Source: Candidatus Omnitrophota bacterium (GTDB taxonomy: Bacteria > Omnitrophota > Gorgyraeia > Gygaellales > Profunditerraquicolaceae). From it: 64,000 nt of DNA. Each line of letters starts with the position of its first letter. The stretch's first letter is position 1. Where the stretch lies: positions 913 to 64,912 of the forward strand of contig JAHIOW010000066.1 in NCBI GenBank assembly GCA_018895075.1. The letters run 5' to 3'. Below are positions 17,391-58,658 of this stretch, in pieces. A model generated the notes under the pieces. The model saw nothing but the letters and a program-made list of their open reading frames with translations, was not told the origin of the DNA and made no database searches. The position numbers and the translations under genes are program-made.

Positions 17391-18133
17391 TTGGCGGGAC
17401 GAATTGAGAAAAGTTTTATGCTGCTTAAGACAAATATTACCAGGCTTATAATCTGAAACAAGGTTAACTCTAGAAAAATAACCTCATTATCCGCACGTAA
17501 GAATTCAATAAAGAATCGAACTATCGAATAAAGCAGTAGATAAAGAAAGAAAATCTGGCCTTGGCGGTGAGGCCTGTCTTGTAAAAATCTTAAGAGCAGG
17601 AAAATGAAAATCAGCAGCAAAGAAGAATATAGTTGCGTCGGTATAAGAACTAACCTATGGACCGGGAAATAAAGGCCAAATCTGGATATCTTGCCAAAAC
17701 AACAACCGTTTAGCAAACAACCGATCCTGCCTATCGCCTGTCCCAATGCCACAAAGGGCACCACTAAATCAAGAATTTTATATAAGAGCGGATTCCTTTT
17801 CTTTAAATAGGCAACGCCAAAAATGATGCCCGCAAATAGCCCTCCGAACCAGGAAAGGCCTCCGTATTGTAGCATAATTATCTCAAGGGGATTTTTTATA
17901 TAATAACCCAGATTTTCGATTATATAAAAAATACGTGCTCCTATAATGCCGGCAACAAAAACCAGGAATGCAAAATTAAAGATTATACTGGTATCGATAC
18001 TTTGTTTTCTTGCCTCTGCCATCGCCAATACCACGCTTAGGCCAAAGGCAATACTAAGCATAAGGCCATAAGAGTAGACGGTAAAAGGACCTATCTTGCA
18101 GATTATGGGATACATTTTCAACTCAAAATTCAA
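17375..18133 (-). CDS. lgt: Prolipoprotein diacylglyceryl transferase
   Basis: Lgt signature GARIFYI...GGLSWFGGLFAGI. Seven-TM protein. Confidence 0.85.
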   Translation of the reverse strand: MNFELKMYPIICKIGPFTVYSYGLMLSIAFGLSVVLAMAEARKQSIDTSIIFNFAFLVFVAGIIGARIFYIIENLGYYIKNPLEIIMLQYGGLSWFGGLFAGIIFGVAYLKKRNPLLYKILDLVVPFVALGQAIGRIGCLLNGCCFGKISRFGLYFPVHRLVLIPTQLYSSLLLIFIFLLLRFLQDRPHRQGQIFFLYLLLYSIVRFFIEFLRADNEVIFLELTLFQIISLVIFVLSSIKLFSIRPAKCGTH

Positions 18134-18185
18134 AACGTAAAAGTCAAAACCACAACTAAAAATTAAAAACTTTTTACTTTTGACT
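18121..18185. repeat. AT-rich imperfect inverted repeat with a 7-nt A-tract period (terminator-like hairpin between lspA and lgt)
   Basis: aaaattcaaaacgtaaaagtcaaaacc...ttacttttgacttttaacttt. AAAAGTCAAAA pairs with TTTTGACTTTT. Related to the element at 21782..21887. Confidence 0.4.
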
Positions 18186-18617
18186 TTTAACTTTCAATAT
18201 AGACCATCCCAGCAATATTGCCCCAATTGTAATAGCGCTATCGGCAATATTAAACACAGGCCAGATGCGAAAATCCAAAAAATCTACGACATACCCTAAA
18301 AATAGGCGGTCAATAAGATTTCCCAATGCGCCTGCTAATATAAGGCTTAAGGAAACGTTATAAATAGAAAATTTTTTATATCTGGATTTATTAAGCTTAA
18401 AAACGGCCAACGCTACAGCAAATAAAGAAATAAAGATGAACAGGGGAATCTGATCTTTGAGGATTCCGAAGGCTGCGCCGCGATTATGGACGAGCGTCAA
18501 ATGAAATATCCCCTTTAGTATAGGCAGAGATTTGTTTAATATTAATTTTTTAGTGGCGAGAAATTTAGAAAGCTGGTCTAAAAAAAGGACGAGCAATATA
18601 AAGATAGGTGGCATCAA
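18174..18617 (-). CDS. lspA: Lipoprotein signal peptidase II
   Basis: NRGAAFGIL and FNIADSAITIGAILL motifs. Confidence 0.85.
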   Translation of the reverse strand: MMPPIFILLVLFLDQLSKFLATKKLILNKSLPILKGIFHLTLVHNRGAAFGILKDQIPLFIFISLFAVALAVFKLNKSRYKKFSIYNVSLSLILAGALGNLIDRLFLGYVVDFLDFRIWPVFNIADSAITIGAILLGWSILKVKSQK

Positions 18618-21781: not shown

Positions 21782-21887
21782 CTTTCTAACTCAAAAGTCA
21801 AAACGCAAAAGGTAAAACCACAATTCAAAACTTAAAACTTTTTACTTTTAACTTTTGGTTTTTACTTTTTACTTTTGACTTTTTACT
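21782..21887. repeat. AT-rich spacer built from ~7-nt periodic repeats (TTTTTAC/TTTTGAC/AAAAGTC) forming nested inverted repeats; probable terminator for mtnP and promoter region for ileS
   Basis: aaaagtcaaaacgcaaaaggtaaaaccaca...tttttacttttaacttttggtttttactttttacttttgactttttac. Confidence 0.4.
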
Positions 21888-41589: not shown

Positions 41590-41880
41590 TGTCCCTGCCT
41601 GCCGGCAGGCAGGGGGTTCCTCGGACGCCCTGCTCGAAATCAAGCCAAGCCAACCCCGCTAAGAAAACTTTGTCTAATTACTATGATGTCTTTGATTTTA
41701 GGGTTCTTGCTGGAGCGCGCATTAGGATTTTTTCGGCAAAGGTGCGCAAGGCTTTACGATGAGCGAAGGTCGTGCGTGTCGAAAGGCGCCTCCGAAAGCG
41801 AAGAGTAAACCGTAGCGCACGGCGAAAAAATCCAGCGCGCGCAAGACAAAACCCTGAAATCAACGTCTCATTGAACGAGA
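41590..41880. ncRNA. Candidate GC-rich structured ncRNA (long imperfect hairpin about 190 nt; 6S-like architecture); strand unresolved
   Basis: GC content is far above local background. Arms of about 35 nt (41701..41742 and 41821..41854) are near-perfect reverse complements (GGGUUUUGUCUUGCGCGCGCUGGAUUUUUUCGCC vs GGCGAAAAAAUCC..GCGCGC..GCAAGAACCC), and the stem continues inward (GUGCGC/GCGCAC). Only Arg-rich, artefact-like ORFs occur here. Confidence 0.3.
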
Positions 41881-43273: not shown

Positions 43274-43294
43274 CCCTGCCTGCCGGCAGGCAGG
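43274..43294. repeat. GC-rich perfect palindrome CCCTGCCTGCCGGCAGGCAGG (copy 2 of 3), a terminator-like hairpin after cca
   Basis: Identical palindrome at 41594..41613 and a variant at 46822..46842. The genome around it is AT-rich. Confidence 0.6.
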
Positions 43295-46157: not shown

Positions 46158-46312
46158 ATTAAATGAGCAGACGACTTATGGAACGCAAGTGAACATAAGT
46201 CGTAGGCGAAGCCGTCTGCGAATTTAACCCCTCACCCAGAAAACCATAGCTTTCTTTGCTGCTGGCTGGGTGAGGGGTAAGTTCGGACTGATAAATTATG
46301 TCGCTTATATCT
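46158..46312. repeat. Member of the mosaic multi-hairpin repeat family (AATGAGCAG stem / GCAA tetraloop / GAATTTAAC / CCCCTCACCCAG..CTGGGTGAGGGG hairpin / TAAGTTCGGAC)
   Basis: attaaatgagcagacgacttatggaacgcaagtgaacataagtcgtaggcgaagccgtctgcgaatttaacccctcacccagaaaaccatagctttctttgctgctggctgggtgaggggtaagttcggac. Confidence 0.65.
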
Positions 46313-48855
<2,543 letters not shown>

Positions 48856-52030: not shown

Positions 52031-52375
52031 TTATGTAACATCCTTTAGAATTTGTTCCACCTCTGCTTTTAGCGTCGGAATATCTTTTCTTGTCGTAGAC
52101 CAAACTGCATTGATATCTACTCCAAAGTAATCATGAATAAGCTTATCTCGCATTCCTGCTATGTCTTTCCAGGGGATATTGGGGTATTTGTTTCGTATGG
52201 TAGAGGAAATCCTTTTAGCTGCTTCTCCAATGATTTCGGTCTGCCGAATGACCCCGTCTTGAAGAAGCATGGTCTTGGTAAAAGTCTCCTCATTAACCCC
52301 GGAAAGATATCCTTCAATTCTAGCAATCGCATCTAAAATATGCTTTAGGTATATTGTATCATCCCGCTCTTTCAT
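52031..52375 (-). CDS. hepT: HepT-like (DUF86, HEPN) toxin of a HepT/MNT toxin-antitoxin pair
   Basis: R-x4-H-x-Y motif RDKLIHDY. 114 aa, 17-nt overlap with the upstream MNT gene. Confidence 0.8.
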
Positions 52376-52655
52376 AAACTACCTCCATCTCATTTTTAAT
52401 CCTGTCTTTTAAATACGGGCTGATAGAGGCTTCGGTTAATAAATCTGCCTTTCTGCCCAAAACCTCTGAAAGCACTCTTTCAATCCTTACAATATCGAGC
52501 AAACTCTTAGGCTTAGAAAAACGAGCTAAAAGATCAATATCGCTCTCTTCTGTAAAGTCACCTGTTACAAAAGAGCCAAATATTGCCAAGAATACAATGT
52601 CATTATTTTTGCATATTTCGAGTAACTTCTTTTTATTATTAATAGCACCTCTCAT
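52359..52655 (-). CDS. mntA: Minimal nucleotidyltransferase (MNT) antitoxin
   Basis: [17 protein letters not shown] nucleotidyltransferase motif (GS...D.D). 98 aa. Confidence 0.8.
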
Positions 52656-52716: not shown

Positions 52717-52794
52717 TGGTCGGGGAGGTGGGACTTGAACCCACGACCTTTTGGTCCCGAACCAAACGCGCTACCAAACTGCGCTACTCCCCGA
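52717..52794 (-). tRNA. tRNA-Pro (anticodon CGG)
   Basis: Minus-strand sequence TCGGGGAGTAGCGCAGTTTGGTAGCGCGTTTGGTTCGGGACCAAAAGGTCGTGGGTTCAAGTCCCACCTCCCCGACCA. It has a 7-bp acceptor stem, D and T arms, GTTCAAGTCC T-loop, anticodon loop TTCGGGA, encoded CCA, and close similarity to bacterial tRNA-Pro. Confidence 0.85.
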
Positions 52795-52859: not shown

Positions 52860-53107
52860 GCAATAATAATGCTTATTTCGCGGCGAAGTTAACATAAGTG
52901 AGTGCACAATTTATGGAACGACAGTGTCCGCCGAAGGACGGATCAGCCTTCGACTGAAACATAAATTGTCTGCACGAACTTACCCCTCACTCAGAAAACC
53001 ATAGATTTCTTTGCTGCTGGCTGAGTGAGGGGTTAAATTCAGACATACAACTTACGTCATTTCATTCCGTAAGTTGTGTCTTCATTTAACACAAGTTATC
53101 GGAGGTA
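52860..53107. repeat. Mosaic multi-hairpin repeat element, long copy A (between tRNA-Pro and ribE)
   Basis: cataagtgagtgcacaatttatgg...tccgccgaaggacgga...cataaattgtctgcacgaacttac-CCCCTCACTCAG..CTGAGTGAGGGG-ttaaattcagacatacaacttacgtcatttcattccgtaagttgtgtcttcatttaaca. Confidence 0.7.
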
Positions 53108-53677
53108 TTAACTCTTTTGCTTAAGGAGGTCGAATTCGATATTGACCTTATCTGATGGTCCCTTAAACCCAAGGGTAGTGTTTTTAAGGGTGTGCGGAAT
53201 TATATATATACTGAAGGTATTGGATTTTTTCTCTGCAATAGTAAGACTTATCCCATCAACCGCAATAGAGCCCCGGGGTAAAATATACCCTATAAATTTT
53301 GGGGGGAAGGCAATCTCAAAACAAAAATTATTATTAATATAACTTTTCTTACGGATAATCCCTATACAATCAACATGCCCGCTAACAAAATGTCCAGAAA
53401 GCCTGTCCCCTATTCTTAAAGCGCGCTCTAAATTTACCTTATCTCTAATTCTTAATGGCCCTAAATCTGTAATCTCAAGGGTCTTGGGCATAACTTCAAA
53501 ACTTAAGGTATCTTTTTCCTTTTTTATGACCGTAAGGCAGGTACCATTTACAGAAATACTATCGCCGACCCCGGTATCCTCCAGTGTCTTTTCTGCCTTG
53601 ATTTCCAAGAGCGTGACTGCACCCCGCCTAGATATCCTTCTGATTTGGCCTAATTCTTCAACAATCCCACTAAACAT
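53108..53677 (-). CDS. ribE: Riboflavin synthase (alpha subunit)
   Basis: MFSGIVEELGQI... N-terminus (the ORF table starts 4 codons earlier at 53689; Met 53677 fits the family). Duplicated lumazine-binding repeats. Confidence 0.85.
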   Translation of the reverse strand: MFSGIVEELGQIRRISRRGAVTLLEIKAEKTLEDTGVGDSISVNGTCLTVIKKEKDTLSFEVMPKTLEITDLGPLRIRDKVNLERALRIGDRLSGHFVSGHVDCIGIIRKKSYINNNFCFEIAFPPKFIGYILPRGSIAVDGISLTIAEKKSNTFSIYIIPHTLKNTTLGFKGPSDKVNIEFDLLKQKS

Positions 53678-53689
53678 AAGTAAGTGCAC

Positions 53690-53863
53690 AATTTATGGAG
53701 CGAAAGCGTCCGCCGAAGGCGGATCAGCCTGCGGCTGAAACATAACTTATTTGGCCGAACTTACCCCGCACCAATTTGTGATTAATGACGTATCCATTAC
53801 AAATTAGTGCGGGGTTAAATTCAGACATACAACTTACTTCATTTCATTCCGTAAGTTGTGTCT
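53690..53863. repeat. Mosaic multi-hairpin repeat element, long copy B (between ribE and ribD)
   Basis: Collinear with copy A over cataagtaagtgcacaatttatgg...tccgccgaaggcgga...gaacttac and ttaaattcagacatacaacttac(t)tcatttcattccgtaagttgtgtcttcatttaaca. The central hairpin is replaced by CCCCGCACCAATTTGT..ACAAATTAGTGCGGGG. Confidence 0.7.
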
Positions 53864-54961
53864 TCATTTAACATATCCTTCTACTAAGAAATCTCCGCCT
53901 AGGCGTGTTAATTTAACATCTTTTAATTTAACTGCCTTCTCTATCCGCGCTATACCCTTACCCATTACTGAACTAATCGCTTCTTTACCGCCAATAATCT
54001 TGGGGCTTATAAAAAATAACACCTTATCCACAAGGCCCTCATCAAATAAAGAACCGATTAAAGTCCCTCCGCCTTCAACCAGAATATTGCTGATTCCCAT
54101 GCGCGCTAGTTTCTTCATCATATCCTTTAAATTTATCTGTCCTTCTTTCTCTTTCGCTTCTAAAATCCTGGCCTGAGCAGCTAACAATCCCCTATTCTCT
54201 GTTTCCTGGCCGACCTCCTCCGTTAAGGTAACAATGATGACGGAACTATTTTTTGAAAATATTTTTGCCTCCTGCGGAGTGCTCAACTGGCTGTCCACGA
54301 TAATCTTCTGCGGCTGTCGTCTTGAAAACCATGCCTCCAGAGCCGGATTATCCCTTAAAATAGTATTTACACCCACTATTATGGCATCATAATTTTGACG
54401 CAAGCGGTGGGCATAAGTACGCGCCTTATCTGAAGTTATCCATTTAGAATCAGCGGTCTTAGTGGCAATCTTACCGTCTAAAGATTGGGCTACTTTGACT
54501 GTAACAAAGGGCACCCTTTGAGTAATATATTTTATAAAGACCTCGTTCTGCGCCTTTAATTTGTCTTCTAAGAAGCCCACCTTCACTTTGATCCCGTGTT
54601 GCCTAAGCATATTGATTGCGCCTCCATTAGTTAGAGGATTAGGATCAATCATGCCTATTATAACTTCTCTTATTCCACTCCTTACAATTTTATCCACGCA
54701 AGGCGGGGTCTTGCCGAAATGTACACAGGGCTCCAGCGTCACATACAAAGTAGCGCCTTTTGCAAGTCTTCCTGCATCATCTAAAGCAATTGCCTCTGCA
54801 TGAGCAAGGCCTGCCTTATGATGATAGCCTCGGCCTACAACGCGGCCATTCTTTACTATCATGGCGCCTACCAGAGGATTAGGATAAGTCTGACCTTTTG
54901 CTTTTTCAGCCAGCCTCATTGCCAGGTTCATAAAGTAGACGTGGTCTTTTTTATATTTCAT
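53864..54961 (-). CDS. ribD: Bifunctional diaminohydroxyphosphoribosylaminopyrimidine deaminase / 5-amino-6-(5-phosphoribosylamino)uracil reductase
   Basis: Deaminase motifs HAEAIAL and PCVHFGKTPPC. C-terminal reductase domain. Start is probably Met 54961 (MKYKKDHVYFMNLA), giving a 4-nt overlap with the upstream gene rather than the 55054 start in the ORF table. Confidence 0.85.
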   Translation of the reverse strand: MKYKKDHVYFMNLAMRLAEKAKGQTYPNPLVGAMIVKNGRVVGRGYHHKAGLAHAEAIALDDAGRLAKGATLYVTLEPCVHFGKTPPCVDKIVRSGIREVIIGMIDPNPLTNGGAINMLRQHGIKVKVGFLEDKLKAQNEVFIKYITQRVPFVTVKVAQSLDGKIATKTADSKWITSDKARTYAHRLRQNYDAIIVGVNTILRDNPALEAWFSRRQPQKIIVDSQLSTPQEAKIFSKNSSVIIVTLTEEVGQETENRGLLAAQARILEAKEKEGQINLKDMMKKLARMGISNILVEGGGTLIGSLFDEGLVDKVLFFISPKIIGGKEAISSVMGKGIARIEKAVKLKDVKLTRLGGDFLVEGYVK

Positions 54962-56750: not shown

Positions 56751-56929
56751 CTACCTCCTTTCTTAAATGAGCACATAACCCCGAAACTTCGGGGTTATGT
56801 GTGCGAATTTAACCCGATAGCAACGAGAAAATTTAGAATAAATTTTCGAAGTGTTTTGCTATCGGGATAGTTCGGACACATAACTTATGTCGTCCCGAGA
56901 TTTTGAGACTCCATAAGTTATGTCCTCAC
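56751..56929. repeat. Mosaic repeat element (CATAACCCCGAAACTTCGGGGTTATG hairpin; GAATTTAAC-CCGATAGCAA..TTGCTATCGGG-ATAGTTCGGAC; CATAACTTATG..CATAAGTTATGTCCTCAC)
   Basis: Same GAATTTAAC...TTCGGAC frame as other copies but a different central hairpin. Ends with the 18-nt motif CATAAGTTATGTCCTCAC abutting the ribBA stop codon. Confidence 0.6.
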
Positions 56930-58150
56930 TTATATTTTTAAATAGTGGCCTAATTTTTCTTTTTTAGTCTTAAGGTACCGGTAATTTAAGGGATTAGGTT
57001 TGATCTCTAAAGGAATACGTTCAACGACGTTGAGGCCATAACCTTTTAATCCTACGATCTTGCGTGGATTATTAGTAAGAAGCCTGATATTCTTAATCCC
57101 TAAATCCACCAAAATCTGCGCCCCTATCCCGTAATCCCGCAAGTCCGGCTTGTGCCCTAAGGCCTCATTTGCCTGGATCGTATCTAATCCTTTATCTTGT
57201 AAACCATAGGCGCGGATTTTATCGATCAGCCCAATACCGCGGCCTTCCTGGCTCATATAAAGAATGGCTCCTTTCTTCTCTCTTGCGATAATCTCCATAG
57301 CCTTCTTCAGTTGCCTCCCGCAATCACAACGTAAAGAACCAAATACATCACCGGTAAGGCATTCAGAATGTACACGCACCAACACTGCCGGATCGCCTAA
57401 TTCGCCCATTGTCAGGGCAATATGAAAATGGTTATTGGTTAGGTCTCGATATAAAATTAATTTGAATGTTCCGAATTCTGTGGGAATAACTGTTTCAGAA
57501 ATCCTCTCAATCAATTTTTCAATCTGCCTTCGGTATTGAATAATGTCAGCGATAGAACAAATCTTTAGATTATGCTGCTGGGCAAAACCAAGTAGCTGTT
57601 TAAGCCTTGCCATTGTGCCATCGTCATTCATAATCTCGCATATTACGCCCGCAGGATAAAGTCCACACAAGCGCATCAGGTCTACTGTTGCCTCGGTATG
57701 ACCTGCCCTGACCAAAACACCGCCTTTCTGTGCTTTTAAAGGAAAGATATGGCCTGGACGAATAAGGTCATCGGGTTTGCTCTGAGTATCAATGAGCGCC
57801 TCTATGGTCCTGGCGCGATCATAGGCAGAAATACCTGTAGTGATTCCTCTGGCAGCGTCTACTGATACTATCCAGGCAGTAGAGAAAGGGTCTTTTATAT
57901 TTGGTGTTCTTTTATCTCTGACCATTGCCTGTAAAGACAACTCATTTAATCTTTGTTCTTCCATCGGCACACAAATGAGCCCTCTGCCACTCTTAGCCAT
58001 AAAATTTATATCTTCCGGCCTAACAAAGGAAGCGGCCATTACCAGGTCACCTTCGTTCTCGCGGTCCTGGTCATCCGCCACAATAACCATTCGGCCTGAT
58101 TTCAAATCCTCTAGTATCTCTGGAATAGAATTAAACATAAGTGAGTGCAC
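56930..58150 (-). CDS. ribBA: Bifunctional 3,4-dihydroxy-2-butanone-4-phosphate synthase / GTP cyclohydrolase II
   Basis: DHBP synthase motif DRENEGDLVMAA. GTP cyclohydrolase II zinc cysteines (ECLTGD...CDCG). Confidence 0.9.
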   Translation of the reverse strand: MHSLMFNSIPEILEDLKSGRMVIVADDQDRENEGDLVMAASFVRPEDINFMAKSGRGLICVPMEEQRLNELSLQAMVRDKRTPNIKDPFSTAWIVSVDAARGITTGISAYDRARTIEALIDTQSKPDDLIRPGHIFPLKAQKGGVLVRAGHTEATVDLMRLCGLYPAGVICEIMNDDGTMARLKQLLGFAQQHNLKICSIADIIQYRRQIEKLIERISETVIPTEFGTFKLILYRDLTNNHFHIALTMGELGDPAVLVRVHSECLTGDVFGSLRCDCGRQLKKAMEIIAREKKGAILYMSQEGRGIGLIDKIRAYGLQDKGLDTIQANEALGHKPDLRDYGIGAQILVDLGIKNIRLLTNNPRKIVGLKGYGLNVVERIPLEIKPNPLNYRYLKTKKEKLGHYLKI

Positions 58151-58190
58151 AATTTACAGAACGCAAGTGAATGTAAATTGTCTGCTCATT

Positions 58191-58215
58191 AAAAAAACCC
58201 GAAGAAATCTTCGGG
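58191..58215 (-). terminator. Rho-independent terminator (attenuator of the FMN riboswitch leader)
   Basis: Minus-strand RNA reads GACCCGAAGAUUUCUUCGGGUUUUUUUAAU, a 7-bp GC-rich stem plus a U7 tract, between the riboswitch and the ribBA start. Confidence 0.65.
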
Positions 58216-58264
58216 TCAGTGATATTTCGCCATACTGCCTGGCGAGCCCGCCACGTTTTGTGGC

Positions 58265-58460
58265 GGAAATCTTCTCCCATCTAGACTTTGCATCCAATCC
58301 TATTTGTTGGATTGGTGTCCGCTTATGCGGAACTATCGGCTCTGGAATTGACCAGATCTACCCCACACCCAGAAACCCATAGCCTTATTTTTGCTGGCTG
58401 GGTGTGGGGCTCGCGGGCTAAACCGCCGGTCAGGACTTTCACCTTACCCCGAAGATTAAC
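58265..58460 (-). promoter_or_regulatory. FMN riboswitch (RFN element) in the ribBA leader, carrying a ~70-nt insertion in its variable P3 region
   Basis: Minus strand reads CUUCGGGGUAAGGUGAAAGUCCUGACCGGCGGUUUAGCCCGCGAGCC...CCGCAUAAGCGG...GGAUUGGAUGCAAAGUCUAGAUGGGAGAAGA. It matches the conserved FMN aptamer blocks (GGGCAGGGUGAAAUUCCCGACCGGCGGUAGUAAAGC... and GCCGACAGUGAAAGUCUGGAUGGGAGAAGGA). Confidence 0.8.
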
Positions 58461-58468
58461 TTTATACT

Positions 58469-58496
58469 ATTATAACAAAAAAACTTAGCTTGTCAA
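58469..58496 (-). promoter_or_regulatory. Sigma-70-type promoter of the rib operon (TTGACA-16-TATAAT)
   Basis: Minus strand TTGACAagctaagtttttttgtTATAATagtataaa. -35 maps to 58491..58496 and -10 to 58469..58474, immediately upstream of the riboswitch. Confidence 0.55.
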
Positions 58497-58529
58497 TGAT
58501 TTAAAAAACAATATAATATAAGTGAGACC

Positions 58530-58658
58530 ACAACTTAGCGAACACAAGTGAAGCTAAGTTGTAGGGTCGAAGTTATCCGCCTTCGGCGGATTAAATTCGC
58601 ACAAATAACTTACCTCGCTTTATTTAATAGAAAGCTCCGTAAGTTATGTGCTCATTTA
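58530..58658. repeat. Mosaic repeat element in inverted orientation (TCCGCCTTCGGCGGA-TTAAATTCGCAC; CATAACTTACC; CCGTAAGTTATGTGCTCATT)
   Basis: Reverse complement of modules seen at 52920, 53724, 56248 (TCCGCCGAAGGCGGA/GAATTTAA) and of AATGAGCA...CATAACTTACGG. The element abuts the cinA start codon. Confidence 0.55.

Follow-up and report, generated by a model that had tools for sequence, protein, structure and literature searches.

Repetitive extragenic palindromic (REP) sequences and bacterial interspersed mosaic elements (BIMEs) of the enterobacteria are composed of short palindromic units, arranged in mosaics with conserved linkers, which lie in operon spacers, are co-transcribed, and occur in multiple copies that vary from strain to strain. 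Rickettsia palindromic elements (RPEs) insert into functional protein and RNA genes at permissive sites. MITEs (miniature inverted-repeat transposable elements) and BOX elements are small, non-coding, multi-copy sequences with inverted ends (modular in the case of BOX), which are co-transcribed and are either present or absent at orthologous sites. MITEs such as the Neisseria Correia elements, and the pneumococcal BOX elements, have been reviewed (PMC10969869). Here, we describe a flavin mononucleotide (FMN) riboswitch located in a 64-kb stretch of a Candidatus Omnitrophota genome (this whole stretch being referred to as “the window”, with coordinates given as window positions unless a locus is named), the stem-loop P4 of which has been swapped for a hairpin (named H2) from a genome-wide repeat, H2 being probably a dispensable passenger in a solvent-exposed arm.

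The riboswitch aptamer, encompassing helices P1 to P6, is located at 58265..58460 on the minus strand and matches the full RF00050 model (1-138) with a covariance-model score of 80.2 bits, the curated gathering score being 66.2 (E = 1.4e-16 for the match), in agreement with the FMN riboswitch proposed in the first-pass annotation of this DNA. All consensus core blocks of RF00050 are kept in the Rfam alignment, in which P4, situated between P3 and P5, measures 39 nt as opposed to 10 in the model. This P4 corresponds to H2 (58361..58409, minus strand), which has the 12-bp perfect stem originally described, closed within P4 by a G.U pair (58410/58360). The apical part of H2 measures 25 nt and is itself paired in part, through CCA/UGG pairing and a short upper stem. 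The first-pass annotation had assigned the hairpin to P3, whereas the Rfam alignment places it at P4; its spacing of about 78 nt, compared with about 11 nt in Bacillus-type FMN elements, stemmed from a misparsed aptamer in which the supposed insert consists of P4 plus the canonical P5, and the GCAUAAGC stem is non-canonical and belongs to an insertion in loop L6 (58288-58331).

Comparison of alleles within the species was possible through RibBA, the product of the first gene downstream of the riboswitch. The RibBA protein of the window (NCBI protein MBU4473613.1, P0122) differs by 1-2 residues from each of the three other members of its 90% cluster, and the contigs were compared for two of these. 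Contig L116 (GCA_018900855.1), being 99.6% identical to the window over 6.2 kb, carries H2 in P4. In contig L117 (ENA ERZ27247124), 99.6-99.7% identical to the window over 3.7 kb, a 16-nt P4 with the sequence TTCCGATATTTCGGGA stands in place of H2. The flanks GCCCGCGAG and TAGATCTGG are identical in L117 and the window, with neither a duplication nor any other change. Between these identical flanks the two alleles share no sequence, there is no homology beyond 1-2 nt at the swap, and TTCCGATATTTCGGGA was not found elsewhere in the DNA examined. Considering that two unrelated P4 sequences occupy one helix position in one population, the difference represents a hairpin-for-hairpin replacement which is polymorphic. 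H2 therefore replaced the resident short P4 exactly at the helix base in a recent, tolerated swap, and is dispensable in the conspecific strain.

A chimeric join driven by repeats during assembly could in principle have placed H2 in the aptamer, given that such repeats do break assemblies (as at the end of JAHIMD010000021.1 and the start of L104). We regard this as highly improbable, because two assemblies made independently (window and L116) contain both junctions, a third (L104, SRR27458589) contains the 3' junction with the aptamer, and the join is exact, helix for helix, with a full-scoring aptamer being kept.

The two further copies of H2 that had been indicated in the window, at 46228-46277 (copy 1) and 52983-53032, were confirmed, the H2 pattern giving 0 matches in 100 shuffles. 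A species-level scan (one genome per species in a 596-Gb collection) with the 19-base pattern CCCCNCACNCAGAAANCCATAG retrieved 22 loci (L001-L022), of which 19 are genuine hairpins from about 8 metagenome-assembled genomes (MAGs) labelled Candidatus Omnitrophota or Planctomycetales and 3 are chance matches, roughly 4 of the latter having been estimated for such a pattern in 596 Gb. The pattern had no match in viral contigs. Two compensated pair changes distinguish the window copies: at stem position 5 a T:A pair has become A:T, and at position 9 a C:G pair has become T:A. These swaps, noted in the first-pass annotation, are real and extend to a set of 24 copies drawn from 9 genomes, in which A:U is found at position 5 in 13 copies and U:A in 9, while C:G is found at position 9 in 18 copies and U:A in 4; neither pair is broken in any copy, the stem being 98.9% paired overall. 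As the search pattern itself prescribed the 5' arm of L001-L022 and their initial 10 loop bases, invariance in these parts is not evidence of conservation, and only the 3' arm, lying outside the pattern, is an independent observation of pairing. The loop had been described as nearly invariant and about 27 nt long; apart from its shorter, partly paired form given above, near-invariance holds solely between copies 1 and 2 (25/26 positions). A fourth window hairpin (53764-53814) has the stem base CCCCGCAC..GTGCGGGG in common with H2 and a different top. In L116, the 5' arm of H2 (at about 2233-2244) reads CCCCCCACCCAA as opposed to CCCCACACCCAG, i.e. two changes within 12 nt, both pair-breaking, in a background of 99.6% identity; these could represent hairpin-associated mutation or a consensus error.

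Over its whole length the riboswitch copy of H2 is only 86% identical to copy 1 (46228), and its identity to five copies from MAG JAPLLU01 reaches 92-94% over 49-50 nt (E about 1e-13). Such identity to the intergenic-element copies of another genome bears on whether P4 is an ordinary lineage-specific extension grown in situ, with a convergent or trivial resemblance to other copies. P4 is a variable arm, which in this clade often starts with CCCC or TCCC and ends with GGGG or GGGA; copies of the hairpin do exist elsewhere, however, same-species alleles are unrelated in P4 between identical flanks, and sister lineages have short P4s. In-situ growth is already contradicted by these data and is the least probable of the explanations discussed here.

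Orthologous riboswitches were read at loci with 67-82% RibBA identity, the aptamers of L105, L028 and L111 (with a changed P3 or very large inserts) being parsed by hand and the others by regular expression. P4 is short (about 16-26 nt) in L025, L026, L027, L028, L029, L030, L031, L032, L033, L105, L109, L111 and L113-115, and long in the window, L023, L024, L034, L110 and L112. In the RibBA tree the window groups with L109, L111, L105 and L033, the P4s of which are 16-22 nt, and H2 in P4 is therefore derived. The remaining loops carry insertions of their own. Loop L2 is occupied in L032, L033 and L034 (in the latter two by a genome-wide palindrome, CCTGCCTG..CAGGCAGG), L3 by hairpin units in L024, L031, L034 and L113-115, and L5 by a hairpin in L025. 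Hairpin units are present in L6 of the window, L023, L024, L026, L029, L038, L105, L110 and L112-115, and L6 of L111 (2468-2620) accommodates a complete composite element of about 170 nt (GGT/AAATGAAGCC...GTGCTCATTA/TAGTCC) with core and platform intact. In all cases the insertions in orthologous aptamers are located at helix tips, and in none at the junction. FMN T-loops are reported to tolerate interruption by a helix (PMC2258182), and L4 to be exposed to solvent and uninvolved in the L2-L6 and L3-L5 contacts (PMC3201879). FMN riboswitches with large inserts fall below the Rfam gathering score or are truncated by it (L105 at 60.7 bits, L024 not reported, L111 a partial match), meaning that decorated riboswitches would be under-counted by standard annotation.

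In the window, the L6 insertion (58288..58331, minus strand; 44 nt, L6 amounting to 47 nt in the RF00050 alignment compared with 5 in the model) is a two-hairpin unit, UCCGC-AUAA-GCGGA followed by CACCAAUCC-AACAAAUA-GGAUUGGAUG. The general form of this L6 unit is (YGCGC-n4-GCGCR)(CACC-N5-loop8-N5-GGGUG). It occurs in L3 and/or L6 of L023, L024, L026, L034, L105, L110 and L112-L115, where one copy or two in tandem are found, facing either way and with stems that covary, and was never encountered outside riboswitches in 0.95 Mb of examined DNA; L023 and L110 share an identical 27-nt hairpin despite saturated silent sites. A separate 20-21-nt palindrome, CCTGCCTGCCGG(N)CAGGCAGG, is present in the window at 41594-41613, 43275-43294 and 46822-46842 and recurs in many loci. 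It constitutes the L2 insert of L033 (2350-2372) and L034 (3111-3130), and in L011 (6953-7001) it is arranged as tandem units of 28 bp, flanked on both sides by direct repeats of 7 bp.

The riboswitch-rib operon has a sigma-70-type promoter (58469..58496, minus strand; TTGACA, 16 nt, TG-TATAAT, with 12/12 consensus matches), and the expression platform contains an intrinsic terminator (58189..58217, minus strand, also delimited as 58217-58196) whose 5' arm CCCGAAGAU is, as read from the sequence, complementary to the P1 5' strand AUCUUCGGG, which points to an antiterminator in the classical arrangement. The minimum-free-energy fold of the leader (z = -6.2) contains P1, P3, P4 (corresponding to H2), P5, the two small L6 hairpins, the terminator and part of P2; P6 was not recovered in this fold. 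The first gene predicted to be under riboswitch control is ribBA (56930..58138, minus strand; PF00926, PF00925), specifying 3,4-dihydroxy-2-butanone 4-phosphate synthase / GTP cyclohydrolase II. On the 3' side of the riboswitch, ribBA is followed by ribH, nusB, a gene for a PHP-domain protein, ribD, ribE and a tRNA gene, an order that is kept at the orthologous loci.

With insertions in both P4 and L6 of one aptamer, insertions of up to 170 nt in relatives, and orthologues under the gathering score (the aforementioned L105, and L024, which was not reported), the riboswitch could be regarded as a decaying pseudo-riboswitch overrun by repeats. This is very unlikely, however: the conserved core blocks and the antiterminator/terminator logic are intact, and the insertions avoid the junction in favour of helix tips. 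Compared with its orthologue L111, the window is identical at 50/51 positions of the 5' core and at 88/102 positions of the 3' core and platform, as against only 49% identity at the third codon positions of ribBA, and both strands of P5 and of P6 have changed with pairing kept. The aptamer core and platform, far more conserved than the silent sites of ribBA, are by this comparison under purifying selection.

Outside the riboswitch, H2 is the upper central arm of a modular, nested-palindrome composite element of about 140-200 nt, with the consensus TAARTGAG-hairpin-CGAAYTTA-H2-TAARTTCG-hairpin-CTCAYTTA. Its ends are terminal inverted repeats, TAA(A/G)TGAG.. and ..CTCA(C/T)TTA, which are often extended to about 20 nt, and nearly all of the 19 genuine hairpins from the scan are flanked by at least one conserved element box. 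The element occupies operon spacers in the window and in at least 8 Omnitrophota-type MAGs. Six full or short copies of the element are found within 16 kb of the window (the full copies being given here without strand). The spacer between a hypothetical gene and a metallo-beta-lactamase-fold gene contains the copy at 46160..46348, with the structure TAAATGAGC-hairpin 1-GCGAATTTAA-H2(46228-46277)-TAAGTTCGGAC-hairpin 3-CCTCACTTA. The spacer between ribE and the tRNA gene contains a copy in the opposite frame (52894..53091) with the H2 copy 52983-53032, and the ribD-ribE spacer a copy (53676..53873) whose central hairpin is that at 53764-53814, with the H2 stem base and another top. The copy in the ribBA-ribH spacer (56764..56933) has another central hairpin, CCCGATAGCAA..TTGCTATCGGG, and the copy at 58518..58658, with the central hairpin TCCGCCGAAGGCGGA, constitutes the 5' untranslated region of a divergent cinA-like gene. 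Finally, a short palindromic element, AATGAGCAG-hairpin-GCACTCACTTA, occupies the interval between the terminator and the ribBA ATG (58137..58192, minus strand), a site at which L105 and L111 have 300-430-nt versions of the element.

Presence and absence of the element can be followed at orthologous sites. The window, L025, L027 and L034 have 150-400 nt of additional DNA, the element or otherwise, between ribBA and ribH, and in L023, L026, L028, L030 and L032 the spacer consists only of the stop codon and a Shine-Dalgarno sequence; the filled site reads TAA/GTGAGG..CTCATT/TAA as opposed to TAA in sites without the element. At the L6 element of L111 the site reads TAA..TAT. In the ribD-ribE spacer the window and L028 both have an element, at one and the same site and in a common frame, the H2 top and the third hairpin being different; this spacer is reduced to TAAT before the ATG in L023 and L032, five further orthologues also being without the element. 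The composite elements thus display the many dispersed copies and the variable occupancy of orthologous sites that are characteristic of MITE-like sequences, and they behave as mobile DNA. The first-pass proposal of a mobile structured module is consistent with this, H2 belonging to a dispersed family that is missing from almost all orthologous P4s, with an ordinary 16-nt P4 in L117.

The window is a housekeeping region with the dcw and mre clusters, an isoleucyl-type tRNA synthetase gene, ribF, ligA and a XerC/D-like recombinase gene; no transposase was detected among the Pfam-scanned open reading frames (ORFs) of its 64 kb, only this XerC/D-like recombinase. A permissive-threshold Rfam scan of window positions 43-59 kb returned no family for H2 or the composite elements, and the literature yielded nothing relevant on Omnitrophota repeats or on repeats inside riboswitch aptamers. 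Insertion of H2 into a central TAA with duplication of the latter (nested insertion) was dropped as a model, no empty-centre composite CGAAYTTAARTTCG being present in the DNA examined. A hammerhead-like core, a mini-ORF and a Shine-Dalgarno mimic in the boxes were likewise rejected, the sequences concerned (AAUGAG, UAUGGAG and UAAGUGAGG, inspected by eye) being off-consensus or not conserved.

Several further observations concern the composite elements. The ATG codons of ribBA (58138), ribE (53677) and the cinA-like gene (at about 58660, plus strand) abut element ends (CTCACTTATG or CTCATTTAATG) without a Shine-Dalgarno sequence; ribH (ATG 56750) has GGAGG after the element. The first TAA of an element is often the stop codon of the upstream gene. 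About 3.5 tandem copies of a ~43-nt unit, GACCCCTCCTTTAAAGGTTCGGAGGGTCTATCCTTTCTGGATTA, are present in L105 (5690-5860) within an expanded element between the riboswitch terminator and ribBA. Assemblies break at composite repeats, and of two independent assemblies of the same species, L103 (JAHIMD010000021.1) stops within the short element, 6 nt short of the ribBA ATG, and L104 (a Logan SRR27458589 contig) has its start within the 3' arm of H2, from which it runs on into the aptamer.

H2 may also be viewed as a functional module at the RNA level, i.e. the protein or RNA docking site suggested in the first-pass annotation, recruited for a second regulatory input or for stabilisation or processing of the leader. 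The stem is kept paired through double changes, and the motif AAANCCAUAG together with the stem is conserved across several genomes (only the 3' arm being independent of the search pattern). The three window copies share one loop orientation in the mRNA sense, and the composite frame shows a bias of about 15 to 1 with respect to transcription among clearly framed H2-bearing copies, a figure that depends mainly on such copies and on rough stop-to-stop gene calls, as a strict box-pair scan for composites gave only 14. However, across the 24 copies the loop is sense to transcription in 8 and antisense in 16 (gene strands again being rough stop-to-stop ORFs), and within one fixed frame of the flanking boxes the apical part faces one way in 9 copies and the other way in 6, so that the combination of consistent orientation and conserved loop typical of a strand-specific structured RNA motif was not found. 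The occurrence of the apical part in both orientations argues against a strand-specific RNA docking role of H2. In addition, unrelated tops are carried by the same stem base (window 53764, L023 7740, L028 4257), the module has no Rfam match, its stem in L116 bears two uncompensated changes, and it is missing in the conspecific strain and in nearly all orthologous riboswitches. A role of this kind is consequently considered improbable.

The reading that we prefer, and consider likely, is that P4 was swapped for a copy of H2 from the genome-wide repeat and that H2 is a dispensable passenger in this arm. As P4/L4 is variable, solvent exposed and without tertiary contact, the aptamer would still fold and sense FMN, with H2 simply acting as P4. 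The perfect stems and “compensatory” changes would then reflect palindromic symmetry kept at the level of the family instead of a riboswitch-specific function, the source of this symmetry being possibly selection on the hairpin or templated correction between its arms, which may take place at the DNA level. In a palindrome at the DNA level such as H2, compensated changes can arise without selection acting on the RNA.

A number of points weigh against this reading. The donor copy of the H2 in P4 was not found within the 64-kb window, the other two window copies being only 86% identical, and all three window copies have the common mRNA-sense orientation mentioned above. The short allele is known from one metagenome contig, though its P4 is ordinary and typical of relatives. 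The riboswitch of the window is probably functional and transcription-terminating, a function that for either allele is inferred from conservation only. L112 (53-nt P4) and possibly L023 (66-nt P4) have an H2-like P4 base, CCCC(C)ACAC..GTGTGGGG (with CCCCCACAC.. in L112 and the 3' end GTGTGGGG in L023), which may indicate some affinity of P4 for this type of hairpin, whether selective or mechanistic. Furthermore, the sequences of the modules are kept between species that have reached saturation at synonymous sites; this implies constraint or ongoing spread, neither of which is explained by a pure “junk passenger” view.

With regard to the route of the swap, replication template switching between hairpins or another form of illegitimate recombination, filtered by selection, is the foremost candidate, albeit at somewhat less than an even chance. 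A hairpin-recognising enzyme, and short-tract gene conversion from an unseen H2-bearing riboswitch allele or paralogue, are both possible and are given equal, lower weight. In quasipalindrome template-switch mutagenesis, a change in one arm is copied to the other arm, giving rise to double changes and loop inversions without selection on RNA. This process fits, as a candidate, the upkeep of H2 symmetry, and does not fit the transfer of the hairpin into P4. More tentatively, the Omnitrophota may possess a structure-directed process by which hairpins are exchanged, inverted and inserted exactly at helix bases and tips, operating through an enzyme on DNA hairpins or through a hairpin-to-hairpin template switch, and acting on intergenic palindromes and structured-RNA genes alike. 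Such a process, if it exists, would account for the precise exchange in P4, the inversion of apical parts, the differing tops of elements at orthologous sites and the hairpins at every tip of the FMN aptamer in relatives, and the riboswitches of the relatives would then represent a natural insertion-scanning experiment.

Two further features of the window, and one of an orthologous contig, were noted. A/T-rich repeats (..AAAACTTTTTACTTTTGACTTTT) at 18115-18188 and 21783-21883 lie on both sides of a gene for a 923-aa class I (isoleucyl-type) tRNA synthetase, and a HepT-like / nucleotidyltransferase (MNT) toxin-antitoxin pair (52031-52655, minus strand) adjoins the tRNA gene at 52720-52793. In L109 (493-1506, minus strand), a weak match to a group I intron (32.9 bits, E = 1e-4), containing an ORF with a faint LAGLIDADG match, directly adjoins a transfer-messenger RNA gene (129 bits).

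The two alleles constitute a natural pair, one riboswitch whose P4 either is or is not a foreign hairpin of 49 nt, which in combination with the L2, L3, L5 and L6 variants maps the tolerance of the FMN aptamer for cargo and is of use for studies of riboswitch folding and for engineering. The Omnitrophota repeat family, apparently undescribed, has a part in shaping the spacers of operons, lies directly against start codons and causes assemblies to break. Should a dedicated mechanism lie behind the exact swap, it would amount to new DNA or RNA recombination biology. Palindromic repeats at permissive sites of functional molecules, and variable riboswitch arms, are of known kinds; the repeat family, its entry into an aptamer, the exact helix swap within a species and the range of insertions among close relatives appear to be new.

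Compared with REP sequences and BIMEs, the composite element has a similar mosaic, intergenic, co-transcribed, multi-copy and strain-variable build. It has no sequence relation to them and possesses terminal inverted repeat-like ends (TAARTGAG..CTCAYTTA); no GTAG head was found in H2 or the boxes, and no gene for a REP-associated tyrosine transposase (RAYT) within the 64-kb window. With RPEs it shares the character of a selfish palindromic repeat that is tolerated inside a functional molecule at a permissive site, and differs in phylum and sequence, in having a riboswitch aptamer as host, and in replacing a helix with a helix instead of being simply inserted. In being small, non-coding, multi-copy, modular and co-transcribed with adjacent genes, with inverted ends, the composite element resembles MITEs and BOX elements; in contrast to these it is without a known cognate transposase, has TAA as a candidate target duplication, and contains internal hairpins which are swapped or inverted between copies far beyond point divergence. 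The riboswitch itself corresponds to the FMN riboswitch (RFN element, RF00050) in its common six-helix aptamer, conserved junction, position upstream of riboflavin genes, terminator platform and variable P4. It departs from that class in that a genome-wide repeat has supplied the copy forming its variable arm, which is polymorphic within one species, and in that the insertions of its close relatives differ and affect each of the five helix tips, the largest being an entire element of 170 nt.

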